Shown here in pieces: positions 1,650 to 37,002 of a stretch of DNA of 64,000 bases (positions are counted from its first letter, which is position 1; each line of letters opens with the position of its first letter). The stretch spans positions 306,489 through 370,488 of the forward strand of contig OZ241963.1 of assembly GCA_965204115.1 (NCBI GenBank). Reading direction: 5' to 3'. This DNA comes from Minisyncoccota bacterium (GTDB lineage: Bacteria; Patescibacteriota; Minisyncoccia; Phycocordibacterales; JABAAK01). Both the position numbers and the translations under genes were made by a program. Under the pieces are notes generated by a model. That model saw nothing but the letters and a program-made list of their open reading frames with translations, was not told the DNA's origin and made no database searches.

Positions 1650-1692
1650 TATACCTACACCATACCACAGGACAAGTGTCGGCTGATAGTAT

Positions 1693-2088: not shown

Positions 2089-2105
2089 ACACTCTGGTTG
2101 CGTTC

Positions 2106-2714: not shown

Positions 2715-2885
2715 AAAGGAGTAGTTATAGTATTAATACATTGAGAGTATACCATAACAATTCCCGTTGTAAGACACACTCATACTAATCCACATAATCC
2801 ACTATCATAGCCGGAAAAATAGCGTTATTCTGCTAAAAATCAGCACTATACTACTATAAGAATCTAATGCAAGGAGAGTATTGCG

Positions 2886-3287
2886 ATGAAAGTTGAAAGG
2901 CGCGATGGCGTACTGATGAATTGTGGGAATCAGGTTGAGCTGGTGCTTATATCTATTACCGATATCGATGAAATTGGCGAAGATTCGTTTGCAGGAGATT
3001 TTTTTAAGGAGATTGAAGAAATCTCTTTTAAAGAGTCTGTAAGTATAGTGCTGCTGCACATTAGATCAAGCAATGGTGAGGCTGCTTTCATAACAGCGCT
3101 GGCACTTGATAGGATTCAGGTATATGCAAAGAAGTGCGGGAGGCATGACATTTGCGTGTGTCTTCACAGACCAAGCGCACAAGAATTCAGGAGTGCGAAT
3201 TACTGGACAAAGAGTTTCAGTATTTCCTATGAAAAAATATGCCTGAGAGAAGGAGTGCTTGCGGATGTTGTCGCAGTAAGCGGCTAA
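2886..3287 (+). CDS. hypothetical small protein, possibly STAS-like
   Basis: 133-aa ORF preceded by AAGGAGAG 8-9 nt upstream of ATG, which is rare in this window. Weak resemblance to SpoIIAA/STAS (VLLHI..SNGEAAFITALAL..IQVYAKKCG). Confidence 0.3.
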   Translation: MKVERRDGVLMNCGNQVELVLISITDIDEIGEDSFAGDFFKEIEEISFKESVSIVLLHIRSSNGEAAFITALALDRIQVYAKKCGRHDICVCLHRPSAQEFRSANYWTKSFSISYEKICLREGVLADVVAVSG

Positions 3288-9978: not shown

Positions 9979-11658
9979 TCATATCACTACACCGATAACC
10001 CGCTCAATTTCTTCCAAAGAGGTGATGCCTTTCAGCACCTTCCAGAGTGCGTCATCCTCCATAAACGGAAGCCCCTGTTTCCGCACTTCTGCGCGCAGTG
10101 TGGCAACCCCGCTCTCTTCCCGAATCACCCGCTCTATCTCATCGTTCACCTCAAACACCTCAAACACACCGATTCGCTTTTTGTATCCGTCGTTGCATTC
10201 CTGGCACTGTGGTGATGCTTCGCTTGGTCTTTTGATAGCATTTAAATCAAACTCCTCTTTATACCGCTCCGGAAATCGTTCTATCATCTGTTGTATTTTT
10301 TCTTTTTGCTCGTTCGTTAGCGGATGCTGTTCTGAGCAGACGGGGCACAGCTGCCGCACCAGTCGCTGTGCGATGACGATATTAATCGCTCGTGAAAATG
10401 CCTGCGGATCCACCTCAAACTGCAATAGTCGCGGCAGCGCGCCGAGCGCGTCGTTTGTGTGCAGGGTTGAAAATACTAAGTGTCCTGTCAATGCCGCCTG
10501 TACCGCCACCTGCGCGACTTCGGCATCACGAACCTCACCGACCAGAATAACATCCGGATCCTGCCTGAGGATGGCCCGTAGCCCTGAAGCGAACGAGTAG
10601 TCCTTATCAATTTCCGTCTGCACAATCCCCTCAAGCCGATACTCAATCGGGTCTTCCAGCGTTACGGTCTTGATATGCTCCCCTTTTACCTCGTTTAAAA
10701 ATGAGTACAGTGTCGTTGTCTTCCCCGACCCGGTCGGCCCTGTGTTCAAAATCATTCCATTCGGTCGTTTAATATGTTTCATAAATACCTCAAGTACCAC
10801 CGGATGAATTCCCAGACGCTCAATGCTATGCAGCACATTTCTCGGATCAAGGAGTCGTATGACGAATGAGCCGCCCTCGTCCTCCGGTATCACAGATGAC
10901 CGCATGCTTAATGTTCTTTTCGGAAGGTGTACCACGAAACCACCGTCCTGTGCCCCCCTTGCGGTTATTTTCATACCGGAGACCAGCTTCATCCGCGTCA
11001 CCATTTGTTTGTACTCCAGTTCATTGAGTTCGGTCATGTCGGTCAGCACTCCGTCTATGCGATACCGTATCACACCGCCCTCCTGTGCCGGCTCAATGTG
11101 TATATCAGACGCGTTTACTGCAACTGCCGTTGCCACGACATACTCTATATTTTTTGACACCCGATGCGCTCGGCTCATTTTTTTGAGCTCACGCAGCACC
11201 TCTCGCACCGCTTCAACTGATTGGATGCTTTGTATTTTTTCTTCCAGTTCTTCATTCGTGATAGACAGTGTTCCCGGCGCAGTCGCGCTTGTGGTGATGA
11301 TGTCCTTGTAGTACATCCATATTTGCTTCAGTGTTTTGGTTGATGCGAGGGTTATGGTGTGCGAGTACCCTTTTTCTTCCAACATGCGGAGTATTTCCGC
11401 CAGTTTTTCATTATTCGGCTCATTCACCGCTACCGTCAGCACCCCCTTCAGCCGCTTATACACCGCCATCTTCCCCTCCCGCGCATCAACTTCTTTCACC
11501 AATTGCAGTGCGTCAGGATTCACCTGCACATCAGTGATGCGAATTGCGGGATATTGATACTTCTTAGAAAGGTAATCCATTAACCGCTCCTCTTCCTCTT
11601 CTCGGTGCTCCCGCAAATCTTTTTGAAATTCCTGCACTGGTGCATTAACGACAGTCAT
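9979..11658 (-). CDS. pilB: type IV pilus assembly ATPase PilB/GspE family
   Basis: A T2SSE N-terminal domain, Walker A NTGPTGSGKTTTLYS, the Asp/His boxes, and a C-terminal tetracysteine CPVC...CQEC. The longest ORF runs to 11745; the likely start is MTVVNA at 11658, with TATACT -10 7 nt upstream. Confidence 0.9.
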   Translation of the reverse strand: MTVVNAPVQEFQKDLREHREEEEERLMDYLSKKYQYPAIRITDVQVNPDALQLVKEVDAREGKMAVYKRLKGVLTVAVNEPNNEKLAEILRMLEEKGYSHTITLASTKTLKQIWMYYKDIITTSATAPGTLSITNEELEEKIQSIQSVEAVREVLRELKKMSRAHRVSKNIEYVVATAVAVNASDIHIEPAQEGGVIRYRIDGVLTDMTELNELEYKQMVTRMKLVSGMKITARGAQDGGFVVHLPKRTLSMRSSVIPEDEGGSFVIRLLDPRNVLHSIERLGIHPVVLEVFMKHIKRPNGMILNTGPTGSGKTTTLYSFLNEVKGEHIKTVTLEDPIEYRLEGIVQTEIDKDYSFASGLRAILRQDPDVILVGEVRDAEVAQVAVQAALTGHLVFSTLHTNDALGALPRLLQFEVDPQAFSRAINIVIAQRLVRQLCPVCSEQHPLTNEQKEKIQQMIERFPERYKEEFDLNAIKRPSEASPQCQECNDGYKKRIGVFEVFEVNDEIERVIREESGVATLRAEVRKQGLPFMEDDALWKVLKGITSLEEIERVIGVVI

Positions 11659-11726
11659 TGCTGTCAGTATAGCATACACGCCCGTGAGGGTAACAAAGTA
11701 CAATACCGTTTGCGGCGATGAGCGGT

Positions 11727-13052
11727 CTACAGCCGAAGCATCCAAAGTGCCATATCATACTTGTTCACAAAAAAGAGGAATTCTCCATCCGGGGTGAGCT
11801 GCGGGTGTATGACATCAAAGTTCGTGTTTCTGGAAAGTATTTGAATTTCTTCCTGATTAGGTGCGAGTAACAGATCCTTTTCTCCGGTTGCGGCGTTCAC
11901 TGACACGATTACATCGTCAAAGGTGATGTCCCCCTGATACCATGAATCGGGAAATACTGTGTCATAGCCGGAAACTGTTTCAATGGGGATGGATATCGGC
12001 GCGGCACAGACAAATATGCCGTTCGCCGCATCGCACTTCTCAGGTAGTGTGATCGGGAGATCAATGGTAATACTCCGATCCCGATTGGTGATAACTGCTT
12101 TTCCGGCAAAATTATCCGCCTTTGTTTCAAACAGCATAAAATATCCCGTTGTTGCGTCCATAAACGCAGACCCGCCGGATGCGAGAGATACAAACTGTTC
12201 ATTCGGCAGCACTCCCTTCGGGTCAACGAGGTAGATGAATCCCTTCATCATGTCGGTAATCGGTGTGTGGAGGGTGATACGCGGACTGTTGCCCCAGCGT
12301 GGCAACCATGAGGCGAAATCTGACCGCCATATTACCTGTGTTTTTGATGGATTTGCCACATCAACAACAACCCCGACGGATTTGCCGTCAATCATCTGCA
12401 GAAAAAAGAGGAGGTTTTTATTATTCGTAGCAACCCGAATATTATCCTCAAACCGCTGCACGCTCGGACCGGTGCCGGTTGTAGAAAATGGTACAAACGC
12501 TGATCGCACCACGGATTCATTATCGGCACTTTCATACAGCACCAGCACTTCACCGTTCTCAAACGGATACCCTTCAATAACCCGAGTAAATTCACCGCGC
12601 GCGGTCAGTGACAGTGAGTATGGGATGGTCTGTACCAGGTATCGATTCCCCCGCCCCTGCTCAATGACCTGTGCCTCCCATGCGTCTCCTTTTTTTTCAA
12701 TGCGATACCCCGCCGTCGGGCCTTTGAACAGCCGCACTAATCGCGGTATGTTTTCTTTGTCTTCAGTACCAGGGTCACTGGTATCAGATAGCGGAGCTGT
12801 GTATACCCGATCATCCCGCCCCTTTCCGTCACTATCATCGGAAACTGAAGGATTAAAAGGTATTTCATCCGGTCTTGACACCCCAAGATTGTCCAGACCA
12901 AGCGATGGCGCTGTCGGTGCCGGTGGCCCATCGGGTGGTGGCGCGGGTGCCGGCGGCTCTGCTGAAAGATATAGGTAGATACCCGCAAACAGCAGCGCAC
13001 AAAATACCAGAAAAATAATAATGGCGATGGTGAACCGTTTTGTAGGGGTCAT
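11727..13052 (-). CDS. hypothetical membrane-anchored secreted protein with Pro-rich linker and a beta-rich C-terminal domain
   Basis: Likely start is MTPTKRF at 13052 (TATACT -10 8 nt upstream). It has a signal-anchor (IAIIIFLVFCALLFAGIYLYL), a PAPAPPPDGPPAPTAP linker and a C-terminal domain. Confidence 0.5.
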   Translation of the reverse strand: MTPTKRFTIAIIIFLVFCALLFAGIYLYLSAEPPAPAPPPDGPPAPTAPSLGLDNLGVSRPDEIPFNPSVSDDSDGKGRDDRVYTAPLSDTSDPGTEDKENIPRLVRLFKGPTAGYRIEKKGDAWEAQVIEQGRGNRYLVQTIPYSLSLTARGEFTRVIEGYPFENGEVLVLYESADNESVVRSAFVPFSTTGTGPSVQRFEDNIRVATNNKNLLFFLQMIDGKSVGVVVDVANPSKTQVIWRSDFASWLPRWGNSPRITLHTPITDMMKGFIYLVDPKGVLPNEQFVSLASGGSAFMDATTGYFMLFETKADNFAGKAVITNRDRSITIDLPITLPEKCDAANGIFVCAAPISIPIETVSGYDTVFPDSWYQGDITFDDVIVSVNAATGEKDLLLAPNQEEIQILSRNTNFDVIHPQLTPDGEFLFFVNKYDMALWMLRL

Positions 13053-13303
13053 ATATAGGTAGTATACTCCACTAGAGAATGTCTTTGCCATTCCTTATTG
13101 GTCTCTTGGATAACACCACTCCTCCAGTTCATCCTCGTTAATTGCTGGTGTGATGCAAAAAGCAGGCAAGGGGCCTTTTTCAAAGTACAGCACCGCTTCA
13201 GTGCCGGTATTAGTGTTCATCCAGTTAGTTCTTGTTGTTGTGCTATCAAGCGTTTTTCTTGTTTCGTGTTTAGAATCCACGCTGCCCCTGGTGATAGTGA
13301 GCC

Positions 13304-15409
13304 TTAATGGCTTCTTGGCTGTAGACTCGACTGGATGGGTACCCCAGCCGGTACAGATGTACCCTGTTTCACTTCATCGCGTGCTGAACCTCTGGTATTT
13401 TCATCGGGGCAGCCTATGACTGGCGGTGCAACGCTAGAAAGTTTTCCGCTATTCTCGTTTCCCTCTCGCAACACCAGGAAACACGCTGTTTCTCCTCTGA
13501 GCGGTTCTTTACATTGGCCAGTCTTTTTACCCTTCTCATTCACCAGCACCAGCATGGGGGTTATTCGAAAAATATCGTTGTGGTTGACTTCCCCAATTTT
13601 GACAACCCAGGGACCCGCTGTGCTGTCCGTTATTTTGAATGTAACCTTTTTGCCATTACCTGTTGAACTATACACTCCTTTACTGGTTGTGCAATCAGAT
13701 GAATCTTTTTTCGTACAATATTGGACCTTTCCACTGTCAATATGGTAGCCGGTTACAATTCCTTCAACACTGCTGAAGATGCGACCGGGGTTTTGAATGG
13801 CTGGAAAATCGATGGTAATAAATTCACCGTTCTGATTGCGAGTAATCCCTTGAGCAACAGTTATATTGCCGCTGAGTTTTACTTTTTCTTTTCCTAAGGT
13901 AATGCAGTCATCAGCATCAAATTTAGGCTTATGCCTCCATGGCTTCCCGCGCCAAAATTTTACCACCTTCCCTGGATCCTTTTCATCTTTCTTCACCACA
14001 ATAGATACGATAGGAAAGACAGCGATAATGTCTGAATTTTTTATTGTCGCCTTTATCTTTGTCTGTGGTTCGCTTGTGCACTTCCTGACGCCGACCAAAC
14101 TATCACCTCCTTCCGACTGGTCTCTGATCTTGTCAAATGCCCTATCCTCTCCTTCCTCGGACACCTTTACCTCTCCGCCAAAATCTGAATATAAAATCTG
14201 ATAATGGTACTGTAGCGGGACAGTGGTGGAATAGGGTCCCTGCTGCAGTGACTGCCTCACACTTTCTACTTGCCCTTTGAAATTATCTTCAATATCAGGG
14301 CATGCACTTATGGTTAGGAGTCCTGTCTCTTTATCGTAGTTGACGGCCTTATCCGGGACGGAAAGATTGGCTGTAACCAGGTTGTTACCTTGCCCGACTT
14401 CCCGCAGCTGGGTGATTGTTTTGAATAGTTGCGGACGGAGGAGTGAAGGGTCAATAAAGTCAAGGATAATCCATGAGAGGAGCAGGATGATGGTGCCGAT
14501 GGCGGCTGCCACCACTCTCTTTTTTGCATCGGAGAAACCCGAGACATTTCCGGTGAACTCGGCGTAGATCATTTGGGTGCCGTGTACGGCAAGCATTACT
14601 ACCATCAAAATTCCGGAAACGGTGAAAATGACACGGAAGAACCGGGTGAAAAATTTTTGAATTAAGCCGCTTACCGCTTCCTGATTGGCATCAGTTGTAT
14701 TAATTCTTTCTGCGCCCCAAATACTGCTGTAGAGATTGAGTATTGTCGGGCTTCCTTTTGTGATGCTCTTACTTGTGGTTGTTGACGCTGTTTCATCATC
14801 GTCGTCGCTGTCATCTCCATTGGCGGATTGAGCGTTTGTAGCAAGGCCATTATGTATGTCTTGTGTAATATCTCTTGTTATGAATTGTATATTTTTACTT
14901 CCCGCCGCTTCTTTGTATCCGACATAGACACAGAGCGTGTGTATTTTTTCCTCAGGATTGTTAATGCTATAAGGAGCAAAAAGGTTGCTTGTTGGTGTTA
15001 TAGATATTGTTGCTGCTGCAGGGTTAAATGCTTCAAAAAGTATGTTGTCAAAAAAATCTGGGTCATTGTTCTCTTCTTCTATTCTTACAAATTCCTCCTT
15101 ATACGCCTCAGCACCCTTTAGGACGAGGCCGTCATCACCGCATTCAACATCAGAACTCCCCGCTACAAATCCATAGCCCCAGTAGTATGTATATGTCAAA
15201 TCATCCTGAGAAACGAGGCTGCGAAGATCAGAAAACCGTGTATTTACTACATATTCATACGTACCTGGATCTTCTCGTTTTTCTCCTGCGGATATAAAAG
15301 TAGGGCGACCCAGATTCGCCTGTGCAAACAACACGCCGCCCATTAATCCGCAGATACTACAGACGAAAAGTAAACTGAATATCAGATTGTTGTAAATCTT
15401 TGTTTTCAT
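13304..15409 (-). CDS. large envelope protein with a signal peptide, Asp-rich segment and a central two-helix membrane hairpin (TrbC/VirB2-like topology)
   Basis: Likely start is MKTKIYNNLIFSLLFVCSICGLMGGVLFAQA at 15409. The hairpin is FFRVIFTVSGILMVVMLAVHGTQMIYA-loop(GFSDAKKRVVAAA)-IGTIILLLSWIILDFI, followed by a ~390-aa C-terminal domain. Confidence 0.5.
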   Translation of the reverse strand: MKTKIYNNLIFSLLFVCSICGLMGGVLFAQANLGRPTFISAGEKREDPGTYEYVVNTRFSDLRSLVSQDDLTYTYYWGYGFVAGSSDVECGDDGLVLKGAEAYKEEFVRIEEENNDPDFFDNILFEAFNPAAATISITPTSNLFAPYSINNPEEKIHTLCVYVGYKEAAGSKNIQFITRDITQDIHNGLATNAQSANGDDSDDDDETASTTTSKSITKGSPTILNLYSSIWGAERINTTDANQEAVSGLIQKFFTRFFRVIFTVSGILMVVMLAVHGTQMIYAEFTGNVSGFSDAKKRVVAAAIGTIILLLSWIILDFIDPSLLRPQLFKTITQLREVGQGNNLVTANLSVPDKAVNYDKETGLLTISACPDIEDNFKGQVESVRQSLQQGPYSTTVPLQYHYQILYSDFGGEVKVSEEGEDRAFDKIRDQSEGGDSLVGVRKCTSEPQTKIKATIKNSDIIAVFPIVSIVVKKDEKDPGKVVKFWRGKPWRHKPKFDADDCITLGKEKVKLSGNITVAQGITRNQNGEFITIDFPAIQNPGRIFSSVEGIVTGYHIDSGKVQYCTKKDSSDCTTSKGVYSSTGNGKKVTFKITDSTAGPWVVKIGEVNHNDIFRITPMLVLVNEKGKKTGQCKEPLRGETACFLVLREGNENSGKLSSVAPPVIGCPDENTRGSARDEVKQGTSVPAGVPIQSSLQPRSH

Positions 15410-16358
15410 TTTGAGCAAATACACGAACAGGTATCTCGGCACCTTCCCCGCGGACAGAAATATCAAGCTTTCTGCCCTCCTTGAGGTGGCTTGCCTCGTT
15501 GTTCACAAACCATTTATATTGTATCGCATTTTTTTCAAAATCGGACTGACTGAAGTAAAACGGGTACACCGAAGCCGTCACTTCCTCGCTGCCGGGCGAA
15601 AGATATTCAGAAAAAACCCGATCCCGCGAGAGTCCGTATAGGAGTGTGTGAGGATACACCAGCAGCCGCGGCTCAACAATAGGCACATTGGTTACTTTTT
15701 CAAAAGAGACCCTGCCACTGCTGATGAGCGTTGCCTCTACCCGCACGATAATATAGCGGTTGAGGTAGCTCCCTCCTTTTTCATACACTACGCTGCTTGC
15801 CGCCGGACCACGCTCGTCGTGGTAGCGCGATTCAATCATCCAGCGGAATGAAAAATCTTTTTCGGTGTAAATAATACCGCTCTGATCAATATACTGCACC
15901 TTTGCTGAAAGCTTTATCGGTGTCTGTGGTCCCGCTAGCCGGTGCCCTCGATACAGCGGCGTGACAACCGAGTCCGCCTCCCAGAGAATATCAAAAACAA
16001 CCGGTCGTATCCATCGGGAAATATTGGCAAATCGCCGCTGCCCCTGTGAATCAAAGTACTGTATCCGCGCAACAACCTGTTTCGGCACGCTACCGGCAAT
16101 TTCAGTAATCTTCGTCTTGTTTGTATATGCCGCCTGTTCAATACCGTCAATCTGCCAGATAATTGAATGGATACTGGAGACAAACGACTGGTTAGAGCGA
16201 ATGGTGAAATCAACATACTCGCCCGGCGACGGGTAGGGTTCACTCACCGATATCTCATACGCGCTGTAGCTCCCCTGCTCTTGCCCGAATACTATGGGAG
16301 TCAGTAAAAAACCCGCTAACAAAACAGCATAGAGCCAAAAAAGAAATGCAATCCGCAT
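15357..16358 (-). CDS. hypothetical secreted protein
   Basis: 333 aa with an N-terminal signal peptide (MRIAFLFWLYAVLLAGFLLTPIVFGQ). TATACT -10 lies 8 nt upstream (16367-16374). Confidence 0.5.
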   Translation of the reverse strand: MRIAFLFWLYAVLLAGFLLTPIVFGQEQGSYSAYEISVSEPYPSPGEYVDFTIRSNQSFVSSIHSIIWQIDGIEQAAYTNKTKITEIAGSVPKQVVARIQYFDSQGQRRFANISRWIRPVVFDILWEADSVVTPLYRGHRLAGPQTPIKLSAKVQYIDQSGIIYTEKDFSFRWMIESRYHDERGPAASSVVYEKGGSYLNRYIIVRVEATLISSGRVSFEKVTNVPIVEPRLLVYPHTLLYGLSRDRVFSEYLSPGSEEVTASVYPFYFSQSDFEKNAIQYKWFVNNEASHLKEGRKLDISVRGEGAEIPVRVFAQNENKDLQQSDIQFTFRL

Positions 16359-16391
16359 ACAGATGTAGTATACCCCGTAAAATTACAGAAA

Positions 16392-17132
16392 CTACAGGAA
16401 TTTTTGCAAAAACTCCGGTGGTCCCACTGCGCTGAAGAATGACAGATCGCCGACGAGGAAAAATATACCGAGCGCGATGAAGAGTAGCCCGCCGATGACG
16501 CGCATGGTCGGTAGGAATTTTGGTATCTCCTGCAGCCGTTCCGCTGCTTTGGTGTAGAGCAGTGCGAGGATGGTGAGCGGCAGCATAATGCCGAGTGCAA
16601 ACGCGAACAGTAGGAGCATTCCGGTGAGCGCTGATCCGGAACTTGCCGCCAAGGTCAACACTCCGCCAAGCACCGGACCGATACATGGCGACCACCCTGC
16701 CGCGAATATCGCGCCGATGAGGAAAATGCCCCACCATGAGTGCACCGGCAGCATTTTCGGTATCGGAAATGATTTATTACCAAGCAATCTTTCCGGCAGC
16801 GGCACTGCGCGCAGTAACACTAATCCGACCATGATAAAGAAAATTGCGCCGATAATCACCAGTATTGGTTTTGCTTGATTAAACAGTGCCACGGTTCTGC
16901 TAAACTGCCCGAACAAGCCGGCAACACCGCCGAATAAGGCGTATGTTGTCGCAAATCCGGAAAAAAACCAGCTCGTTGTTGTGAGGGTGTACGGAATGTT
17001 GTTGCTGTCCTCGTCGCCGATGATGAGTGCGATATATCCCAGCACCATCGGATAAGTACACGGCAGAAAGACGGTGATAATCCCCGCCAATATAGTTACG
17101 GAAAAACTTATAATGGACAGCTGTTCTATCAT
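16392..17132 (-). CDS. ccdA: cytochrome c-type biogenesis / thiol-disulfide transfer membrane protein CcdA (DsbD family)
   Basis: Six TM helices with the two conserved Cys motifs FLPCTYP and WSPCIGPVLG. Confidence 0.85.
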   Translation of the reverse strand: MIEQLSIISFSVTILAGIITVFLPCTYPMVLGYIALIIGDEDSNNIPYTLTTTSWFFSGFATTYALFGGVAGLFGQFSRTVALFNQAKPILVIIGAIFFIMVGLVLLRAVPLPERLLGNKSFPIPKMLPVHSWWGIFLIGAIFAAGWSPCIGPVLGGVLTLAASSGSALTGMLLLFAFALGIMLPLTILALLYTKAAERLQEIPKFLPTMRVIGGLLFIALGIFFLVGDLSFFSAVGPPEFLQKFL

Positions 17133-17842
17133 TGTACTTCTTGCAGGAGGCCCCGCACCTGCTCCAATGGCAATGCGCCCGGTATGGAGCGCACCGCTTT
17201 GGTCTTTTTGTTGACCAGGAATGATCCCGGTGTGCCGTTGACCCCCATTTTCTGTGCATCGTTCATATGCTGCTCCACGAGCTGCTGCTGCTTACTGCCT
17301 GCCGCAACACATGCGTCTATTTGCGCATCAGAGAGGCCGTTTTCTCGTCCCAGTGCTTTATAGGTTTCAAGACTTAGTGCGGTTGCGGTGAATACGCCGT
17401 CTGTGTATGTCCAGAATGCGTCGTTCCCCTTGTGGGTCTTCACACATTCACCAATGGCAGCGCCGTCTTTTGCGGTCACATGAAATGGCAGCGGTAGGTG
17501 CCGGTACACCCACATAACTTCCCCACTGTCCACCAACGCCTGCACCGTCGGGTGGAATCGCTTACAAAATCCACATTCATAATCAGAGTACTCAACCAGT
17601 AGTACATCCCCGCTTCCGCGTGTTGCATCGTTATTTCGTACGGTCAGTATGTTAAGGTCCGGCGTGATCGGTGGCGGTCCCGGCGGCACTTCTCCCGCCG
17701 GCGGGTTGCCCTGTGGCTGTACCGCCACAGTTCCGCTTTTTCCGTGTATCATTCCGGCATAGAAAATTGCCGCTATGGCAATGAGGACCGCAAGTGCGGT
17801 GATCATGTTGTTTGTTTGATTACTGTTTTTTTCTGTACTCAT
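17129..17842 (-). CDS. membrane-anchored DsbA-like thioredoxin-fold thiol:disulfide oxidoreductase (CXXC = CGFC)
   Basis: A TM anchor and a DsbA/COG1651-like core (VLLVEYSDYECGFCKRFHP). It overlaps the ccdA start by 4 nt, which suggests an operon. Confidence 0.8.
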   Translation of the reverse strand: MSTEKNSNQTNNMITALAVLIAIAAIFYAGMIHGKSGTVAVQPQGNPPAGEVPPGPPPITPDLNILTVRNNDATRGSGDVLLVEYSDYECGFCKRFHPTVQALVDSGEVMWVYRHLPLPFHVTAKDGAAIGECVKTHKGNDAFWTYTDGVFTATALSLETYKALGRENGLSDAQIDACVAAGSKQQQLVEQHMNDAQKMGVNGTPGSFLVNKKTKAVRSIPGALPLEQVRGLLQEVQ

Positions 17843-17907
17843 AGTGTTTTATTGTTTTTTGTAATTATTAAACTGATTATGGTTATAGCATACCATACTT
17901 TACTTCA

Positions 17908-18615
17908 TTATGGTTTTGCTTTTTCTACCAACACCTTTACCCGCTGCAAAAACTTGCTGTATTCATTCGCGTACGAGATGCCAATCGGTCGGTCTTTATA
18001 TACTACCACAATATACGGTGTTCCGCGGGAACCCAGCCGCCATCCCTCGTTACTGTCCCGCTCTACCCGACTCCGCACCCGCTTATCCGTTGAGATACAT
18101 TCCTGAAATTGCCGCGCGTCTGTCCCCAATGCCGCTGCCTTATTCGCCAGTGCTTTTGCATCGTTGATATCTCGCTGATTTTCATACACATACTGAATAA
18201 ACGAGAAGAATGCTTCCTCGCCGGTATGTTTCGCCACACACTCGGCGGCAACCGCCGCTTCAAATGCGGCGCCTTTTTTCTGCGGATATAGGTGCCGCGA
18301 CACCACCAGCACCCCCTCTTCGTCGACGATCTTTTTAAAGCTCTCCCGCATTGCCGCGCACATAATACAGCTTAAATCTGAATACTCAATCAGCACCACT
18401 TCCGCGTCAATATCACCCTGGGTGTGGTCAATAGACCGCACATCGGTCATGCCGATTACGGTGTGCTGTGAGTCAACCACCCCGATACCTGCTGCAATAT
18501 GTTTCAGGACCCGCACCATCGGATGTTCCACATACAACAGTACCCCCGCTACCATCACCACCGCCACACACACCACCACTATCCGCCGTACATTCATTTG
18601 TCGCACATTCTGCAT
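17908..18615 (-). CDS. second membrane-anchored DsbA-like thiol:disulfide oxidoreductase (CXXC = CIMC)
   Basis: VVLIEYSDLSCIMCAAM motif. Likely start is MQNVRQ at 18615, with TATACT -10 8 nt upstream at 18624-18629. Confidence 0.7.
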   Translation of the reverse strand: MQNVRQMNVRRIVVVCVAVVMVAGVLLYVEHPMVRVLKHIAAGIGVVDSQHTVIGMTDVRSIDHTQGDIDAEVVLIEYSDLSCIMCAAMRESFKKIVDEEGVLVVSRHLYPQKKGAAFEAAVAAECVAKHTGEEAFFSFIQYVYENQRDINDAKALANKAAALGTDARQFQECISTDKRVRSRVERDSNEGWRLGSRGTPYIVVVYKDRPIGISYANEYSKFLQRVKVLVEKAKP

Positions 18616-18798
18616 ATGCTTACAGTATATCGCTATCTGGGAGCTCTGTACTTGGTATCTGCCACAGCCACCGCACGACAAGGGATGATGATTGAGGAGA
18701 TATGAGGCAGATACTACGGCTTTTTAATAGAGGGCAATTTGAGCTGCTGAATACCCTGTAAAATGGTAAAAACCTTGATTTTACTGCCTTTCTTGGGG

Positions 18799-18827
18799 TT
18801 GACATATTGCTCCATAAATGATATAAT
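18799..18827 (+). promoter_or_regulatory. consensus sigma70-type promoter TTGACA-17nt-TATAAT
   Basis: TTGACA at 18799-18804, a 17-nt spacer, TATAAT at 18822-18827. Predicted TSS is about 18834, upstream of the protease gene. Confidence 0.6.
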
Positions 18828-18897
18828 ACATATAAGTTACGGTGCCGGGGAGGGGCATGATGCATCTAACTACATTACACCATACATACACCATATT

Positions 18898-19965
18898 ATG
18901 ATTACCACATATTCTGATTACCACACAAAGAGAAAAATTACTACGGGGCGACTGATATACCTACTTACCACTCTGGGCGTTGTTTTGCTTGTATTCCTGT
19001 TCTCAGTTGGCTACCGAGCAGTAACCGCTTACACCCAGTCCCTGCACGAACAAATTGAGGGTATTAAAACACAGCACCAAGATGAGATTGACACCCTGAT
19101 GGAGCAGCAAAAAGCGGCTGTTGAGGCAGCAGAGGAAGCGAAATGGGTTGCTACGAAAGAGGCACAAGTAGTGAAGGCGGCTATGGAGCGCGCACAAAGA
19201 GAGGTGAAAGCAGCTGCTATCACCCCTATTTCGACCGACACCAGTGTTGGCAGCAGCACAGACCTCACGGCAGCAGAGATCGAGCGATTGTCTCGTTCAA
19301 TTGTAGAAATTAAGTGTAGTCGTATGGCCGGTTCCGGCTTCCTGTTCAGAATACCGAATAAGTCTGGTGGTGTACGAAATGCCGTATTTACCAACAACCA
19401 CACTATTGAGAAGGATATGCGTGCCGGAACGCCGTCGTGTTATGTGGATAATGACTTTTTCCCGACCGCAGCACCTACTGGAGTTATTGACATCAGACCG
19501 GATAAGGATAAGATGACAGTGTTTAACCATTATGCTGACTTTGTGGCAGCAGACCTGCACTTGTTGCACGGCGATGACCGAAAGAAGCTTGACGAAAGGT
19601 ACCGCGCGGGAGAAAGGTACCTTAGCCAGCTCGATTTCTTTTCTTTGGACACGATGCCATTGTGTCCGGCCGACCACCCTACAGGGAGTGTTGTATATGC
19701 GATGGGATACCCAACATACTCACGAGGAAACATTGTCGTAGTGAAGAACAGCATTATCGGAAAAGACAACATGATCAAAAACCTTCCTCATGATGACTAT
19801 CTCACATCAGCAAGTATCGATTCTGGGATGTCCGGTGGAGCAGCTTTTTCTAAAACAAAGAACGGAGAAATCTGCCTGCTCGGCATAAACACCTGGGTAC
19901 TCAAAGGCACCTACGAAAATGTCGGTGTTATCCAGAACATCCACAACATCATGTACTCGAAATAA
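18898..19965 (+). CDS. membrane-anchored trypsin-like (S1/chymotrypsin fold) serine protease
   Basis: A TM anchor and a coiled-coil region, then a protease domain with GDSGGP-like SIDSGMSGGAAF and His region FTNNHTI. The longest ORF starts at 18763; the likely start is MITTYSDYH at 18898. Confidence 0.7.
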   Translation: MITTYSDYHTKRKITTGRLIYLLTTLGVVLLVFLFSVGYRAVTAYTQSLHEQIEGIKTQHQDEIDTLMEQQKAAVEAAEEAKWVATKEAQVVKAAMERAQREVKAAAITPISTDTSVGSSTDLTAAEIERLSRSIVEIKCSRMAGSGFLFRIPNKSGGVRNAVFTNNHTIEKDMRAGTPSCYVDNDFFPTAAPTGVIDIRPDKDKMTVFNHYADFVAADLHLLHGDDRKKLDERYRAGERYLSQLDFFSLDTMPLCPADHPTGSVVYAMGYPTYSRGNIVVVKNSIIGKDNMIKNLPHDDYLTSASIDSGMSGGAAFSKTKNGEICLLGINTWVLKGTYENVGVIQNIHNIMYSK

Positions 19966-19986
19966 GCATTTAGCTTTTCGGCAGAA

Positions 19987-20030
19987 AACAACACCACGCC
20001 CACTATAGGGCGCGGTGTTGTTTTTATTCG
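19987..20030. terminator. bidirectional rho-independent terminator between the protease gene and pilM
   Basis: A 15-bp stem AACAACACCACGCCC/GGGCGCGGTGTTGTT (1 mismatch) with loop ACTATA, followed by TTTTT on the + strand and a U-rich run on the minus strand. Confidence 0.6.
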
Positions 20031-20068
20031 TACTCTAATACTTTTTTCATCTCTTTCCTCAACCGTTA

Positions 20069-21184
20069 CTACCCCTCCAATGCCCGTAGAGCAGCGCCGA
20101 CGGCGACGGAGAATTCTGATCCGCTTTCTTTGAGGGTTTCGCTGAGGAGGGCAGGATGCCGCAGCCGTGAAAAAGGGTTTGCTATCTCAACACTGTTTTT
20201 TGTTTTTGCCTTCACCTCTTCCAGAAGTCCTTTCATAGATGCGCCGCCGCCGGTGAGTACAATCTTAGAGATGGATTGACGGTATCGCTGCTCAAAATCA
20301 ACAATCGCGTTGTTTGCTTCCGTGAAAATCTCATCAATAACTAATGACATCGCATGGCGGACTTCCTTGTCCTCTATGGTAAAGCCGAATTCCCGCTTTT
20401 TGTGTTCTGCCTCTTTGAATGATATGTCTTCCGCGCGCGCTATTGCCTGCGATATATTCTGCCCTCCTTGGTTTACGAAAAATGATCGAAGAATAATGCC
20501 GTGTTCAACGACATATAGTTTTGTGGATCGCGCCCCTATGTCGATGATGATGACCGGAAGCCCGCCATCATACACCGAGGAACGAAGTGTGCTGAATATC
20601 TCAATTTCAAAGTATTGGGTGTTTAGGGCAGTTTTCCCCAGAATGTTTTTATGTTTGATAAGTTCGTGGTTGTGAATGGCGATGAGGAGCACTTTTCGTT
20701 TTTCACTCTGTGCGATAGGTGCAATGTCATCCTCAAAAATAGGCGCGTCATCCCGTCTCAAGAGTGCCTGTGGCACTACAAACCAGTCCAGCGATACATC
20801 TTCCAATGGTACCGGGATGTATCGCTTTGCCTCAAAAGGAATGGTTTGCGCTATTTTCTCATCGGAGAGTGCCGGCACTTCAATGAGTGATATCAAGCTG
20901 GAGTGAAATGGTATGGAAACACACGCCAGCGATGCGGTTATCTTTGCTTCTTGCAGCAGCGCCGCTAATACCGTGTGCAGCACTTCTTCACCGGCGTTTG
21001 CGTGCTGTCCAATCTCAGTATCCTCCACATAGGGTCCGATTGCCAATGATCCGTAGGTCTCTAAGACGGCAACCCCTTTTTCCTGCCGCACTTGTACCAC
21101 TTTCACTGCGGATGACCCGATGTCTATCCCGACAACACTGTGCTTGCCCCTCTTTAAAAACGAAAAAACTCGTGGTATTGGCAT
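20069..21184 (-). CDS. pilM: type IV pilus assembly protein PilM (actin-like ATPase)
   Basis: VGIDIGSSAVKVVQV phosphate-1 motif, IIDIGARSTKLYVV and LTGGGA motifs; 371 aa. Confidence 0.85.
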   Translation of the reverse strand: MPIPRVFSFLKRGKHSVVGIDIGSSAVKVVQVRQEKGVAVLETYGSLAIGPYVEDTEIGQHANAGEEVLHTVLAALLQEAKITASLACVSIPFHSSLISLIEVPALSDEKIAQTIPFEAKRYIPVPLEDVSLDWFVVPQALLRRDDAPIFEDDIAPIAQSEKRKVLLIAIHNHELIKHKNILGKTALNTQYFEIEIFSTLRSSVYDGGLPVIIIDIGARSTKLYVVEHGIILRSFFVNQGGQNISQAIARAEDISFKEAEHKKREFGFTIEDKEVRHAMSLVIDEIFTEANNAIVDFEQRYRQSISKIVLTGGGASMKGLLEEVKAKTKNSVEIANPFSRLRHPALLSETLKESGSEFSVAVGAALRALEG

Positions 21185-33651: not shown

Positions 33652-36600
33652 TTAATTATTGCTGTAAACAGAAAAATGATCATCGTAATTGCCAAGGAGC
33701 GCATTACTCTCCATTCCTGGTATGCCTTTGATGTGGTCTACAACATCGCTATTTCTTGTTTCGAACACGGCTCGTAACCCGGCATTGCCGGCTTCTTCAA
33801 TGAATGTTTTTACCTTCCTTTTGAATGCTTCTTTTTCGGTGTCTGTAAGATTCTTATAGATGACGGGGCTTCCATTTTTTCTAAAAGCAATGTCAACGCA
33901 GGTGCCGGTATAGTGACAGTTGTTGCTATGTGGTCGTGTCGGCGGCCATGCTTCAGTTACTATCCATGTAAAATCTTCAATATTTTTTTTGAGACTGCTT
34001 TGTAATTTTCCTGCGAAACCGCTAACTACTTTATTGCTCTCAGCCTCTTTGAGCAAACCTGATGGGAGGTCGTTGCAGTTATTACAACTACAGTTCAGGC
34101 CTGATTTTCTTCTACTTCTCCGTCTTAGATGCCCTTCACATACTGCAATCTCTGCATCTTGTTCGCCCTCTTGTGGTCCTGCGTTGCCGCCCCTGTTATC
34201 ATCAGCCGGTGATTGACCGGAGGTTCTTCCTGGTGCCGGCTCCATATCATCCACAGGAGGCAGTTCTGCTTCGTTCCACTGGAACGGATTGCCCAAGTTG
34301 TAGCCGATGATATTAAATCCTGCGTTGACGATGAGGTAGGCACTGAGGATGAATATCAGCCCGAAGAGTATCGCTCTGAGTGCGTCCTTCACTTTCTTTC
34401 GCGCTTCCTGATCGCCTCCTTTTACGAACACATTAATTGCTAATACTGCCCCTCGGTAGAAAATGAGTATTCCCGCGCCGGTGATTGCAAGCCATAGCAG
34501 GAGTTTCATTATATTATTCGCTAATTCAAATAGGTGCTCTATACCACAATCATTTCCTTCCCCAAAACTGCAATTTACGATGAGGTTTGACTCTTCTACC
34601 TGATCATTACTGGTAATACTCACGGAATAACTACTGCTGGCAGTGGGGCTTCTACCGCTAACTGAACAGGTAATTGAGCCGGACGACTCAGGTGTGTCGT
34701 CATCAGTGGTTTTCATGGTAAAAGAGCCGGTGGTGTCCCTTTGGGTGGAGAATGAGAGCGGCGTAGCACCCCACGCGCCTCTTTCTTTGCAAGAGACCGT
34801 GAAACCCTCTTCTGTCGCATCTTGCCGCCGAGTAATAGTCCACTTAATACTTTCTCCCTCGGAAATACGAGCGTTATCTGCCTCTATGGTAAAAGGAGGC
34901 GGATTGGCGGGAGATGATAAGCGTGGATCGGGTGGTGCGTTGCCGCCATCATCACCGTTCCCGTTGTCGCCATTACCATTGCCGCCATTGCCACTGTCTG
35001 TCGTTGTTGTCGTAGAATCTACAGTACCGTCTTCATTAACGGTGGTACGATGTGTTTGTTCAATCTCATTTGAGAAATCGTCAGTTGTTCTCACAACAAC
35101 TTCCAGATTGGTTTCTCGGTCCGGGTCTACGGCATTAGGGATGGTTATACTCCAAGCGCCAGTTTCCGAATCAGCAGTAACAATGCTGAGATCTTCACTC
35201 AACGGTATGGTGGCTTCATTGCTTGTTACGGAAACAGCGGCAACCGTTGAGCCGGGTTCCGCCGTGCCGGATATGGTGGCCGACGGGGCGGCAGGGGCTC
35301 CTCCGACAGAAAATCTGATACCTCTGTTATAGGTGGTGTCTATGGTCACATAGTACTCCGCCTTCTCATAGTCAGTATTAGTATCATCTTTTCTGGAGGC
35401 GAAACAGAAAGTGTATCCGTTATCAGTCGCCGCACCAAGAGTGACCGGAGAGCCTTCTGTGTAGGTATTTTCCAATCTATCCCATACATAAATATCGGAA
35501 CCGCAAGGTTGATTTTTATATATTTTCTGCATCCGCCACGAAGTCTCTCCACGAGGATAATTATCAGTTGCGCGGAAAGTTATTGATTGTACACGACTCC
35601 CACGATTATTTTCCATCCCTGCAGGATTTGTCTCTTTATCAAAAGTTATGACAACCGGTCTATCGTCTAAAGCCCCTCCTTCTTGACGGTCACCCCAAAA
35701 GCAAATTGCCGTACTCCCTCCATACCCGCGGCATTGATATGAATTACTTGTGCCACGGGGAGGTGACTGCGCACAACGACAGCCACCAGGCGCACACTTA
35801 CCATTGAATACACTTCCTGCGCTACAGCCCTCACAAGTTCCGGAATTATTTCCACCGTTCTTTCCCTCACAATACCACGCGGCAAAAGTTCCTAAGTTTT
35901 GCCGGCAAAAACAAGCCCATGTAGCGGATGCGGTTGATGCGCTTATTTCAGTGCCGGCGACACACCTTGTTTGAAATGTGCCGCATTTGCCATCCACTAC
36001 ATTTTTTACTGTAACTGTTATTGTTCCACTTTTTCCTTGTGGGTCCTCATTGCATTGATCGTGAATGGGATTTCCACCCTCTCTCGGAGTGTCAGTGATC
36101 TCCCCGGTACAGAAATACGCTGAAAAATTTATAGTATATATATCTTCATCTTTTGTGTCTTCCGCAACCTCAGGAGCATTTGTTATTCTGATCATCTTAT
36201 CATTGGCTCCCTCCCGGGATTCATAGGTAATCCCTTCTGGGGCTTCTATCTCTATCCGCTTCATATATGCCCCTTCCTTGTTTGCGCCGGTAAAACAACT
36301 TTCATAAATATCCAACCAGGCACTTTCTTCCTGAAGTTCTTTCACTTCAAGCTCACAATCACCTGATCTATATTCCACGCTTCCCTCATACTCATTCTTA
36401 AAGATCATCCCTAACAATGTTTCACCATCGTTGCTGCTTTTGTTGTTAGGGTCACACGATAAATCATTGTCAATTTGTTCCGGTGTCTTTTCCCACCAAT
36501 CAATTTTCACAAAATCAGGCAAATCCCGCTTAAGTGTTTTGTTGATCTTGTCATTTTTAGGGTTTTGATAAAATATCCTGTATATTGCAAATTTTCCAAC

Positions 36601-36936
36601 ACCTGCAGGGTCATCCAAACCGCCGCCGTCTCTGTCTTTGACATGCTCCACCGTAAACCAATTGTTCTCAAGATTTTGATTTGGCTGTACCTCAGAGCAG
36701 TCAATACTATTAAATGGGATTTCAATTATTTTATTATTAATTTGAGATTCGCCGTTGACCGACTCAAAGTTCTTTTCAAAGGACCACTCACTTGTTGTGG
36801 TAAATACCTCGGGCCATGTCTCAGGACGAATTATTACCCCTTGTTTACCTTGCCCATACAGATTTACGGAAAAAAGGAATAAGAGGGATGGGACGATGAT
36901 AAAAACACCCAAAAGTGTCAATATATATATGCGCAT
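33652..36936 (-). CDS. giant (~1094 aa) secreted cysteine-rich surface protein with a C-terminal two-helix membrane hairpin and a putative LAS/M15-like peptidase domain
   Basis: Likely start is MRIYILTLLGVFIIVPSLLF (ATG 36934-36936, TATACT -10 9 nt upstream). It has a Cys-rich module, a GNGGNGNGDNGNG low-complexity stretch, the hairpin LLLWLAITGAGILIFYRGAVLAINVF-KGGDQEARKKVKDALRA-ILFGLIFILSAYLIVNAGF, and a C-terminal domain with HYTGTCVD (HxxGxxxD) and later DH motifs. Confidence 0.6.
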   Translation of the reverse strand: MRIYILTLLGVFIIVPSLLFLFSVNLYGQGKQGVIIRPETWPEVFTTTSEWSFEKNFESVNGESQINNKIIEIPFNSIDCSEVQPNQNLENNWFTVEHVKDRDGGGLDDPAGVGKFAIYRIFYQNPKNDKINKTLKRDLPDFVKIDWWEKTPEQIDNDLSCDPNNKSSNDGETLLGMIFKNEYEGSVEYRSGDCELEVKELQEESAWLDIYESCFTGANKEGAYMKRIEIEAPEGITYESREGANDKMIRITNAPEVAEDTKDEDIYTINFSAYFCTGEITDTPREGGNPIHDQCNEDPQGKSGTITVTVKNVVDGKCGTFQTRCVAGTEISASTASATWACFCRQNLGTFAAWYCEGKNGGNNSGTCEGCSAGSVFNGKCAPGGCRCAQSPPRGTSNSYQCRGYGGSTAICFWGDRQEGGALDDRPVVITFDKETNPAGMENNRGSRVQSITFRATDNYPRGETSWRMQKIYKNQPCGSDIYVWDRLENTYTEGSPVTLGAATDNGYTFCFASRKDDTNTDYEKAEYYVTIDTTYNRGIRFSVGGAPAAPSATISGTAEPGSTVAAVSVTSNEATIPLSEDLSIVTADSETGAWSITIPNAVDPDRETNLEVVVRTTDDFSNEIEQTHRTTVNEDGTVDSTTTTTDSGNGGNGNGDNGNGDDGGNAPPDPRLSSPANPPPFTIEADNARISEGESIKWTITRRQDATEEGFTVSCKERGAWGATPLSFSTQRDTTGSFTMKTTDDDTPESSGSITCSVSGRSPTASSSYSVSITSNDQVEESNLIVNCSFGEGNDCGIEHLFELANNIMKLLLWLAITGAGILIFYRGAVLAINVFVKGGDQEARKKVKDALRAILFGLIFILSAYLIVNAGFNIIGYNLGNPFQWNEAELPPVDDMEPAPGRTSGQSPADDNRGGNAGPQEGEQDAEIAVCEGHLRRRSRRKSGLNCSCNNCNDLPSGLLKEAESNKVVSGFAGKLQSSLKKNIEDFTWIVTEAWPPTRPHSNNCHYTGTCVDIAFRKNGSPVIYKNLTDTEKEAFKRKVKTFIEEAGNAGLRAVFETRNSDVVDHIKGIPGMESNALLGNYDDHFSVYSNN

Positions 36937-37002
36937 ACTATTGTCAGTATACTGCACGAAACATACTTGTAGTGCCTATGCGGCTGTGCTATCATATATC
37001 CT

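Follow-up and report, generated by a model that had tools for sequence, protein, structure and literature searches.

The genes between pilB and pilM at positions 11,727-19,965 of the 64-kb window, i.e. the whole stretch of DNA that was analysed, are probably a composite in which a recent rearrangement within a single Kaiserbacteria-like subclade joined three independent units and moved a distal module of a type IV secretion system (T4SS) beside pilus and disulfide genes. The first unit, three consecutive genes here called C, B and A, would be the distal module of the chromosomal, conjugation-derived T4SS of Patescibacteria. The second, consisting of dsbA-like 2, dsbA-like 1 and ccdA, would be a general extracytoplasmic thiol-disulfide module, and the third an S1 protease that is anchored in the membrane, varies in occurrence and has a strong promoter to itself. 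The flanking genes pilB and pilM would derive from yet other blocks and be neighbours by rearrangement only. The organism is Kaiserbacteria-like (Parcubacteria/Paceibacteria) and not a member of the Saccharibacteria, which an earlier note on this DNA had named among the relatives to compare. The genes as described in that note are all present at or very near the coordinates it gave. Few machines have been shown to be indispensable to Patescibacteria living as epibionts, and the T4SS is one of them. A Saccharibacterium requires T4SS genes, those for pilins included, to grow as an epibiont (Wang et al. 2023, PMC10633639; PMC12857230).

C (15357..16358, minus strand), the first gene of the trio, encodes 333 amino acids with an N-terminal transmembrane (TM) or signal segment. 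It overlaps by 53 nt with B (13304..15409, minus strand), which encodes 701 aa from its MKTK start, the longest open reading frame (ORF) reaching 15466. The last gene, A (11727-13052, minus strand), encodes 441 aa from the second ATG, or 454 aa from the ATG at 13091. Neither C nor A matches a Pfam or NCBIfam model, and profile searches of both against the PDB sequences returned no relative. The structure prediction that had been proposed for the hypothetical proteins was carried out for A and C (AlphaFold pLDDT 83.2 and 86.3, respectively) and gave generic folds only. The model of C, a membrane-anchored or secreted protein, shows three beta-sandwiches resembling Ig/FN3 domains, and that of A a membrane-anchored beta-propeller, in which one N-terminal TM helix is followed by a disordered, Pro-rich linker. 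Foldseek searches of the PDB retrieved only generic Ig/FN3 arrays for C (6-14% identity) and only generic WD40, TolB and DPP-IV propellers for A (7-12% identity), with no T4SS or type IV pilus (T4P) component among the matches. Neither protein has homology to any named T4SS subunit, and a T4SS role is assigned to these folds through guilt by association.

The A family comprises 2350 cluster representatives in a profile search (E ≤ 1e-3), all of about 400-450 aa and including members from Ca. Taylorbacteria. The propeller of A carries an invariant Cys353/Cys362 pair. Both the A and the C family are widespread, unannotated and syntenic with a VirB2-like pilin, which singles them out as concrete candidates for those parts of the T4SS, spanning the envelope or in contact with the host, that are still missing; they may be new, as yet unnamed T4SS-linked families.

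B is assigned, by its own sequence and those of its orthologues, to the T4SS pilin family PF18895 and not to the type IV pilins, and may represent a new kind of oversized, "decorated" pilin. It consists, in this order, of a signal peptide, an N-terminal ectodomain, a two-TM T4SS_pilin hairpin (aa 253-319) and a Cys-rich C-terminal ectodomain. The window protein itself scores 23.5 bits against PF18895, a little short of the gathering score of 26.6, and the family was detected in nine of ten B orthologues, four of which are above the gathering score (L013, 32.2; L012, 29.3; L008, 26.8; L006, 35.5; L numbers denote loci). A signal peptide and two TM helices were found in B and all ten orthologues (11/11), a layout read with a simple Kyte-Doolittle hydropathy window rather than a dedicated predictor. 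Like the VirB2/TrbC pilins (PF04956, PF18895), B combines a signal peptide with two hydrophobic helices further along that are joined by a short basic loop, both of its ends are predicted to lie outside the cell, and its gene is linked to virB4 in relatives. However, VirB2 is a processed protein of about 70-120 aa, whereas in B some 230 aa precede the hairpin and some 380 aa follow it, and its 701 aa set it apart from small pilins of about 100 aa. A further difference is that the ectodomains of B are essentially unalignable even in a close relative: the hairpin is 96% identical to that of the L013 orthologue and the ectodomains only 2-28%, even though the neighbouring genes of that relative are 88-98% identical.

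The B orthologues range from 158 to 749 aa. B itself contains 12 Cys and its orthologues in window-type genomes 7-12, compared to two each in the minimal pilins of L003, L006, L001 and L014. In the proposed mechanism the signal peptide of B would be removed and the two-helix hairpin would reside in the membrane or be polymerised, with the two large, fast-evolving, Cys-rich ectodomains pointing away from the cell, presumably at the host. The pilin of several lineages reaches a length of 500-1100 aa and has hypervariable Cys-rich ectodomains, which may be a way to achieve host specificity. Outside the studied coordinates, the window encodes a second giant PF18895 protein (33652..36957, minus strand; 1101 aa, 30 Cys), with a score of 27.4 bits at aa 809-878. 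This protein follows the same design principle as B and has no T4SS gene beside it, and blastp reports no similarity between the two at E ≤ 1.

The trio order is kept across relatives, and the comparison supports the earlier view of the three hypothetical genes as a genuine and conserved module of the envelope. More distant relatives provide eight loci (L001, L002, L003, L005, L006, L012, L014 and L015) in which the trio is located directly downstream of genes for PrgI/VirB3 (PF12666), a TraC-like protein (PF26593), VirB4 (PF19044/DUF87/AAA_10) and a small ORF. The PrgI and TraC-like genes adjoin virB4, with the cluster beside yidC, in L001-L003, L005, L006 and L014; they also adjoin virB4 in L012, the contig of which ends before yidC, and the L015 locus begins at virB4 and shows yidC only. 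The VirB4 gene and the small ORF overlap by 4 nt in L003, L005, L006, L007 and L012 and are separated by a few bases in L001 and L014. C and A were confirmed as homologous across the virB4-linked loci, with an hhalign probability of 99-100% for the positional orthologues of C downstream of virB4 in L014 and L015 and with A-family members on the contigs of these two loci identified in the profile search, and the order VirB4-small ORF-C-B-A holds down to 68% VirB4 identity and about 30% A identity. In these loci yidC, rnpA, dnaA, dnaN, PBP, ruvC, yebC and ruvB lie between the trio and pilB. The order pilM-dsb-dsb-ccdA-C-B-A-pilB occurs only in the window and in relatives in which A is at least 76% identical (L013, L004/L009 and L008/L010), and in L012, where A is about 71% identical, the trio follows virB4.

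Within the 64-kb window, a scan of ORFs of at least 150 aa found no VirB4, VirB3 or TrsD (no VirB4/AAA_10/P-loop_TraG match), nor does the window contain VirB3/PrgI and TrsD/TraC-like genes beside virB4 near dnaA/rnpA/yidC. The ATPase core (VirB3/PrgI, TrsD/TraC-like and VirB4) would be encoded elsewhere on the same chromosome. Such a separation is seen in the complete chromosome OY764332.1 (696,550 bp), where the VirB4 core (L007), adjoined by a Thioredoxin_4 gene, lies about 27 kb from the trio (L008). A protein 100% identical to window C was found by homology search on a 661,662-bp contig, and the VirB4 protein P0383 is likewise encoded on a 661,662-bp contig. For the genome of the window, the T4SS link is a putative one, by orthology and by the equal length of these contigs.

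The T4SS loci described for Patescibacteria contain VirB3, TrsD, VirB4, VirB6 and PF18895 pilins near dnaA/rnpA (Quinonero-Coronel et al. 2025, PMC12102498). The clusters of the relatives resemble this MPF-FATA-like system (PMC12102498; PMC10633639) in that the trio forms the 3' end of a VirB3/PrgI, TrsD/TraC-like, VirB4 cluster, with large membrane proteins encoded upstream and a VirB2-like pilin of PF18895, beside yidC, rnpA, dnaA and dnaN, which is the context reported in PMC12102498, and with no relaxase or coupling protein near the cluster. In contrast, the locus in the window is split, the trio standing alone behind the dsb/ccdA operon and ahead of pilB, and its pilin has 701 aa with two ectodomains instead of being a small pilin or part of a tandem pilin array. 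Propeller, TolB or immunoglobulin partners of the A and C type are not named in the text of PMC12102498 or PMC10633639. C and A would be the membrane-anchored extracellular partners of the pilin and most likely scaffold or stabilise a structure that passes through the cell wall. A bolder proposal, quite possible yet short of probable, is that the Paceibacterial T4SS has in A and C two conserved structural subunits, as yet without a name, which, together with an oversized VirB2-like pilin whose hypervariable ectodomains determine contact with the host, form a new cell-wall-spanning surface structure in a monoderm; the module could be uncoupled genetically from the VirB4 core and would be co-transcribed here with a dedicated disulfide-folding unit.

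The second unit starts with DsbA-like 2 (17908..~18615, minus strand, longest ORF to 18681), which carries a CIMC motif and a TM helix and scores 71.1 bits against Thioredoxin_4. It is followed by its paralogue DsbA-like 1 (17129..17842, minus strand; about 30% identity), a CGFC protein anchored by a TM segment at residues 14-32 (Thioredoxin_4 57.6 bits, DSBA 43.3 bits). Orthologues of DsbA-like 2 have 215-235 aa. Both proteins are above the Thioredoxin_4 gathering score of 23.2 and contain cis-Pro (GTP) loops (VNGTPGS and SRGTPYI), so that domain, CxxC motif and cis-Pro loop, all read from sequence only, are those of DsbA-like oxidoreductases. ccdA (16392..17132, minus strand) encodes a CcdA-type thiol-disulfide membrane electron transporter (PF02683 DsbD_TM, 68.7 bits) with six hydrophobic segments, in which Cys25 and Cys150 are situated in PCxxP-like contexts. 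This combination of a DsbD_TM domain with two membrane Cys is typical of CcdA/DsbD proteins, and CcdA is 87-96% identical in L004, L008 and L013. These assignments, like that of the S1 protease, were already made in the earlier note and are borne out by Pfam scores above threshold and by the motifs. The translational coupling of DsbA-like 1 to ccdA that it proposed is likewise indicated by a 4-base ATGA overlap, which can be read directly in the sequence.

CcdA and the two DsbA-like proteins constitute an ordinary extracytoplasmic thiol-disulfide module. CcdA would pass electrons across the membrane to the translationally coupled thioredoxin-fold partner, and the module would form or repair the disulfides of Cys-rich surface proteins, probably serving many of them. 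Maturation of c-type cytochromes is not expected in these organisms, and the substrates must therefore be other envelope proteins. Candidates are B, A with its invariant Cys pair, the 1101-aa PF18895 protein and a 692-aa pilin-like protein of the window with 14 Cys. The module resembles the CcdA-ResA/StoA systems of Bacillus and CcdA/SdbB of Streptococcus gordonii (PMC7034828), in which a two-Cys CcdA/DsbD-type protein is encoded with membrane-anchored CxxC thioredoxin-fold proteins. However, the partners here are DsbA-like (Thioredoxin_4/DSBA) and not ResA/TlpA-like, and there are two paralogues with CGFC and CIMC motifs. A DsbB/VKOR partner was not found in the window, nor was there a tblastn match to the DsbB of L011.

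The trio has remained intact after leaving virB4 and is now probably co-transcribed with the dsb/ccdA genes ahead of it and with pilB behind it, since the gap between ccdA and C is only 33 nt, with no promoter-like or terminator-like site, and that between A and pilB 68 nt. This leaves room for a function independent of VirB4 or for a new coupling to the Dsb proteins or the type IV pilus. Thioredoxin-fold proteins are encoded within F-type T4SSs as well (TraF and TrbB), which is a precedent for the rather unlikely reading that the subclade recruited the Dsb/CcdA proteins specifically to fold the B ectodomains and the A Cys pair, with dsb-dsb-ccdA-C-B-A as one maturation-plus-substrate unit. 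The short ccdA-C gap is consistent with this reading, as are the size and Cys content of the window-type B compared to the minimal pilins, the invariant Cys353/Cys362 pair and the Thioredoxin_4 gene beside the separated VirB4 core in L007. However, a large Cys-rich B is also present in the virB4-linked loci L005 and L012, which have no adjacent dsb gene, and the many other Cys-rich secreted proteins of the window are equally possible substrates. Furthermore, DsbA-like 1 gives insignificant matches to the TraF and TrbB models (E only 0.04-0.05) and was rejected as a T4SS thioredoxin of this type.

It is improbable that the trio is a self-contained cassette for a surface adhesin or antigen, carried along beside T4SS genes and mechanistically unconnected with VirB4. 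Such a cassette could explain why the trio survives its separation from virB4, why the B ectodomains are hypervariable and adhesin-like, why A and C have generic extracellular folds and why the 1101-aa PF18895 protein stands apart from T4SS genes. However, it does not account for the retention of the VirB4-small ORF-C-B-A order at the low identities given above, nor for the conserved core of B being precisely the VirB2-like hairpin. In addition, PF18895 pilins are found near virB4 in 1135 assemblies (PMC12102498) and are essential in one cultured species (PMC10633639). Within the favoured T4SS reading, a pilus or adhesion role is inferred.

The flanking genes each belong to a block of their own. 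pilB (9979..11658, minus strand) encodes a PilB/GspE-type ATPase (T2SSE 339.5 bits, MshEN domain) and is the first gene of a pilB-ruvB-yebC-ruvC-PBP block that is conserved in L001-L008 and in the distant metagenome loci L016-L026. pilM (20069..21184, minus strand; PilM_2 129.8 bits) is divergently paired with comFC, a pair common to L004, L008, L011 and L013. In L011, from Kaiserbacteria, three small ORFs and then a different paralogue of pilB come after pilM, and dsb, ccdA and the trio are missing. The intervening genes are not linked to pilB/pilM in L001-L003, L005, L006, L011, L012, L014 and L015. The earlier note had named a lack of conservation in relatives as refuting its proposal, and the pilM-to-pilB neighbourhood as a whole is indeed not conserved beyond the closest relatives. 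As a negative control only, a JGI metagenome scan with a PilB alignment (relatives of ≤45% identity) yielded 80 distant pilB loci, 25 of them with pilM, and no homologue of ccdA or dsb lies within 10 kb in any of them. A GTDB genome scan with a PilM alignment gave three loci only, its peptide patterns being too specific. A 383-aa ORF upstream of pilB in L017 was rejected as a remote relative of the A family or PilM (hhalign probability ≤0.2%).

Dsb proteins can serve pilins, as the BdbDC oxidoreductases of Bacillus subtilis do, which are needed for the disulfide of the pseudopilin ComGC. The proposal of the earlier note that trio, Dsb proteins and protease form an uncharacterised surface or maturation system serving the type IV pilus/competence apparatus could further draw on the co-directional, closely spaced genes from dsbA-like 2 through pilB to PBP (window, L013, L004/L009 and L008/L010), on the 14 Cys of the 692-aa pilin-like protein and on T4P and T4SS both being essential in a cultured Saccharibacterium (PMC12857230), but it is very unlikely, with the pilB/pilM adjacency confined to the closest relatives, the trio following virB4 in the others, B assigned to PF18895, and both the pilM of L011 and the 80 distant pilB loci having no such neighbours. 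That note had also stated that pilC, pilT, pilN and pilO are missing from these positions, which agrees with the lack of any Pfam/NCBIfam match (E ≤ 0.1) of the trio, Dsb proteins, CcdA or protease to PilN, PilO, PilP, PilC, PilT or PilD. Tiny genomes can keep unrelated genes stably adjacent, as pilB with ruvB-yebC-ruvC-PBP shows, and in annotating such rearranged genomes, pilB/pilM adjacency in a single genome predicts function poorly.

The third unit is the S1 (Trypsin_2) serine protease (18898..19965, plus strand; PF13365, 31.0 bits, gathering score 27.6), with one TM helix, a coiled-coil spacer of about 100 aa and His213, Asp259 and Ser357 in the motifs NHT, DFVAA and GMSGG. The sigma-70 promoter at 18799..18827 (plus strand), TTGACA-17-TGaTATAAT, matches the consensus at 12/12 positions with an extended -10 element (TG), in agreement with the earlier note, but it falls inside the longest protease ORF, which begins at the ATG at 18763. 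For this reason the protease most likely starts at ATG 18898, the first in-frame ATG after the promoter, giving 355 aa. It is the only perfect promoter match of the region, in which promoter-like sites are not in excess (16 compared to 17.0 ± 4.1 in shuffles). With HtrA/DegP the protease shares the Trypsin_2 domain, the usual His-Asp-Ser order and an N-terminal membrane anchor, whereas it has no PDZ match, carries the coiled-coil spacer and is restricted to the closest relatives. Its scores against the HtrA models are low (DegS 20 bits, cut-off 423; DegP 13 bits, cut-off 416), and by sequence it is classed as S1-type and not as a canonical HtrA. The protease is absent at the corresponding position in L004 and L008 and is a lineage-variable insert that the window shares with its closest relative, L013, alone, where the orthologue is 81% identical and is accompanied by an extra 287-aa gene.

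The trio of envelope genes in this region comprises C (15357-16358; Ig-like, 333 aa), B (13304-15409; pilin-like, 701 aa) and A (11727-13052; beta-propeller, 441 aa), all on the minus strand. Transcription on this strand proceeds from dsbA-like 2 (17908-~18615, CIMC motif; Thioredoxin_4, 71.1 bits) and dsbA-like 1 (17129-17842, CGFC motif; Thioredoxin_4, 57.6 bits) through ccdA (16392-17132; DsbD_TM, 68.7 bits), C, B and A to pilB (9979-11658), followed by ruvB, yebC, ruvC and a class A PBP gene. The gene pilM (20069-21184) is likewise on the minus strand, and a plus-strand S1 protease gene (Trypsin_2, 31.0 bits) lies between dsbA-like 2 and pilM. Pfam and NCBIfam confirm PilB, PilM, ComFC, CcdA, both DsbA-like proteins and the protease as the earlier note had described them. 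Homologues are named Candidatus Kaiserbacteria or Paceibacterota, which places the organism among Parcubacteria-type CPR bacteria and not with the Saccharibacteria. None of three further large minus-strand ORFs (58584-62780, 43211-45040 and 25025-26410; 1398, 609 and 461 aa) has a Pfam match. The earlier note had read the trio, CcdA, the DsbA-like proteins and the protease as a surface or maturation system accompanying the type IV pilus and competence apparatus. The observation is confirmed, but the interpretation holds only in part: the best description of the region is that a pilin module of the known Patescibacterial T4SS has been relocated to a site between two unrelated pilus-gene blocks, where it is joined to a variable protease and an ordinary thiol-disulfide operon.

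B is the sole member of the trio with a curated family match in Pfam or NCBIfam. Its residues 253-319 match PF18895 (T4SS_pilin) with 23.5 bits, just below the gathering score of 26.6. In the protein, the signal peptide is followed by ~230 aa of N-terminal ectodomain, then by the two-helix hairpin and finally by ~380 aa of C-terminal ectodomain; the total number of Cys is 12. The ten positional orthologues of B range in length from 158 to 749 aa, yet all retain the signal peptide and the two-TM hairpin, and nine match PF18895; the gathering score is exceeded by four of these, among them the one in L013, the locus of the closest relative (32.2 bits). Together, the family matches and the retained layout argue that B is a VirB2-like pilin core bearing variable decorations. 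No other gene of the neighbourhood evolves nearly as fast: B is 51% identical to its L013 counterpart (10950-12899) over the alignable part, compared to 88-98% for the neighbouring genes. Within this pair, identity is 96% in the hairpin but falls to 6-28% in the N-terminal domain and to 2-20% in the distal C-terminal domain. At the sequence level, the divergence of the ectodomains suggests diversifying selection or domain swapping, and its very high rate is consistent with a host-contact or antigenic surface. A second giant PF18895 protein is encoded at 33652-36957 (minus strand; 1101 aa, 30 Cys), with the hairpin (aa 809-878) near the C-terminal end and a score of 27.4 bits, above the gathering score. 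It shows no similarity to B in blastp at E<=1, and no T4SS genes lie beside it.

In the AlphaFold model of A (pLDDT 83), a TM helix at the N-terminus is connected by a disordered Pro-rich linker to a beta-propeller, in which the Cys353/Cys362 pair is invariant. C is modeled (pLDDT 86) as three Ig/FN3-like sandwiches behind a hydrophobic N-terminal helix. Foldseek returned only generic structural neighbours for both proteins, which for A are WD40, TolB and DPP-IV propellers at 7-12% identity, and no sequence relatives of either profile were found in the PDB. A profile search with A covering 1.84 billion cluster representatives gave 2350 matches at E<=1e-3, of which 1499 reached E<=1e-10; most are 400-450 aa long and spanning the whole propeller; one cluster of this family originates from Ca. 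Taylorbacteria.

The trio occurs in two arrangements. In arrangement 1, genes for two large proteins are followed by PrgI/VirB3 (PF12666), a TraC-like protein (PF26593), VirB4 (PF19044/DUF87/AAA_10), a small ORF of 122-179 aa (missing in L015) and C-B-A, and the locus continues on the opposite strand with yidC and rnpA, then dnaA and dnaN, then PBP-ruvC-yebC-ruvB-pilB. Among the relatives' loci, this order is found in L001/L002, L003, L005 and L006 (A 40-58% identical to the window), in L012 (~71%) and in the more distant L014 and L015 (VirB4 68-71%, A ~30%), where homology of C is recognized with an hhalign probability of 99-100%. Arrangement 2, that of the window, reads pheT-comFC-pilM-[protease]-dsb2-dsb1-ccdA-C-B-A-pilB-ruvB-yebC-ruvC-PBP. 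Outside the window, it recurs only in L013 (A 88% identical; protease and one extra gene present), L004/L009 (78%, without the protease) and L008/L010 (76%, without the protease). In L008, the pheT product (751-3072; L010 6816-9134) carries an inserted NlpC/P60 domain recognized by Pfam, alongside a ~390-nt gap in the tblastn match with the window PheT.

Arrangement 1 corresponds exactly, in gene set and dnaA/dnaN/rnpA context, to the Patescibacterial T4SS (Quinonero-Coronel et al. 2025, PMC12102498). That study described a VirB4 clade that is specific to Patescibacteria and related to the MPF-FATA conjugation systems of monoderms, with VirB3/PrgI, TrsD, VirB6 and PF18895/VirB2-like pilin genes frequent near virB4, a relaxase usually lacking, and the Paceibacteria loci sited near dnaA, dnaN and rnpA (PMC12102498). 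Epibiotic growth of Southlakia epibionticum is reported to require T4SS genes, including those of the pilin array (Wang et al. 2023, PMC10633639; 2025 review, PMC12857230). As the terms propeller, TolB and immunoglobulin are absent from the text of PMC12102498, and propeller from that of PMC10633639, the Ig-like and propeller partners appear undescribed in these two primary T4SS papers. What is new is modest but genuine: two families that are widespread, linked to the T4SS and still without a name, decorated VirB2-like pilins that are oversized, and a T4SS locus that is split. The CPR VirB4 is unusually conserved, sharing 64-69% identity with proteins labelled Campbellbacteria, Paceibacterota or Parcubacteria; all 8000 scored candidates of the homologue search fell below E=1e-60.

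The split is directly visible in the complete relative chromosome OY764332.1 (696,550 bp), where the PrgI-TraC-like-VirB4-188-aa core (L007) lies ~27 kb from the trio (L008). If the genome of the window shares this geometry, the core would fall beyond the 64-kb window. VirB4 protein P0383 is encoded on a contig of 661,662 bp, and a protein 100% identical to the window C is also found on a 661,662-bp contig, which indicates, short of proof, that the window's genome keeps its VirB4 core elsewhere. Equal contig sizes, as fingerprint evidence only, also place an A homologue and a VirB4 together on several other short contigs (18-36 kb). About 4 kb from the separated core, L007 contains seven paralogous ORFs in tandem (15602-20530; ~210 aa, 66-82% mutually identical) without hydrophobic N-termini, Pfam matches or a homologue in the window.

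Direct sequence reading confirmed the ATGA overlap between dsb1 (dsbA-like 1) and ccdA, and 33 nt separate ccdA from C. Since this gap contains no promoter-like or terminator-like sites, the trio is probably transcribed from the dsb operon in the window subclade. The main alternative is that this dsb/ccdA-trio coupling has functional meaning. No DsbB was found in the window by tblastn with the DsbB of L011, a locus of another Kaiserbacteria genome. In L007, a Thioredoxin_4 (DsbA-like) gene (12413-13150, minus strand; 27% identical to dsb1) directly follows the separated core. The protease exceeds the Trypsin_2 gathering score (27.6), has one TM helix and contains the motifs NHT, DFVAA and GMSGG in His-Asp-Ser order. 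The consensus sigma70 promoter ascribed to it earlier is a perfect match (TTGACA-17-TGaTATAAT, 18799-18827), but because it sits within the longest ORF (18763 onward), the start was corrected, probably to ATG 18898. This leaves a 282-bp divergent control region common to the protease and dsbA-like 2.

For the relocated pilin module, we propose that B would be inserted via Sec/YidC and its signal peptide then removed, after which the hairpin may stay in the membrane or polymerise as VirB2 does, with the ectodomains predicted to point outward. A and C would each be tethered by one N-terminal helix, A additionally on its Pro-rich stalk, and could plausibly serve as scaffolds or as partners that span the cell wall. 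Disulfides of the abundant Cys-rich surface proteins, as candidate substrates, are most likely formed or isomerised by the Dsb module, with CcdA probably giving electrons to its translationally coupled partner, DsbA-like 1.

The block pilB-ruvB-yebC-ruvC-class A PBP is kept in L001-L008 and in the distant metagenome loci L016-L026, with PilB down to ~41% identity, and is an example of long-lived adjacency without obvious functional link, while comFC-pilM forms a separate conserved divergent pair. In 80 distant pilB loci, 25 of which also have pilM, no homologues of ccdA, dsb1, dsb2, C or virB4 occur within 10 kb. Given the two arrangements and the separate blocks of pilB and pilM, the trio adjoining these genes is a recent lineage-specific rearrangement, and their adjacency is not evidence for the pilus-associated system proposed earlier. 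At the L011 pilM locus (PilM 68% identical), which lacks dsbA, ccdA and the trio, three small ORFs come after pilM, and then a different pilB paralogue, truB and a DsbB-family gene (15652-16209, minus strand).
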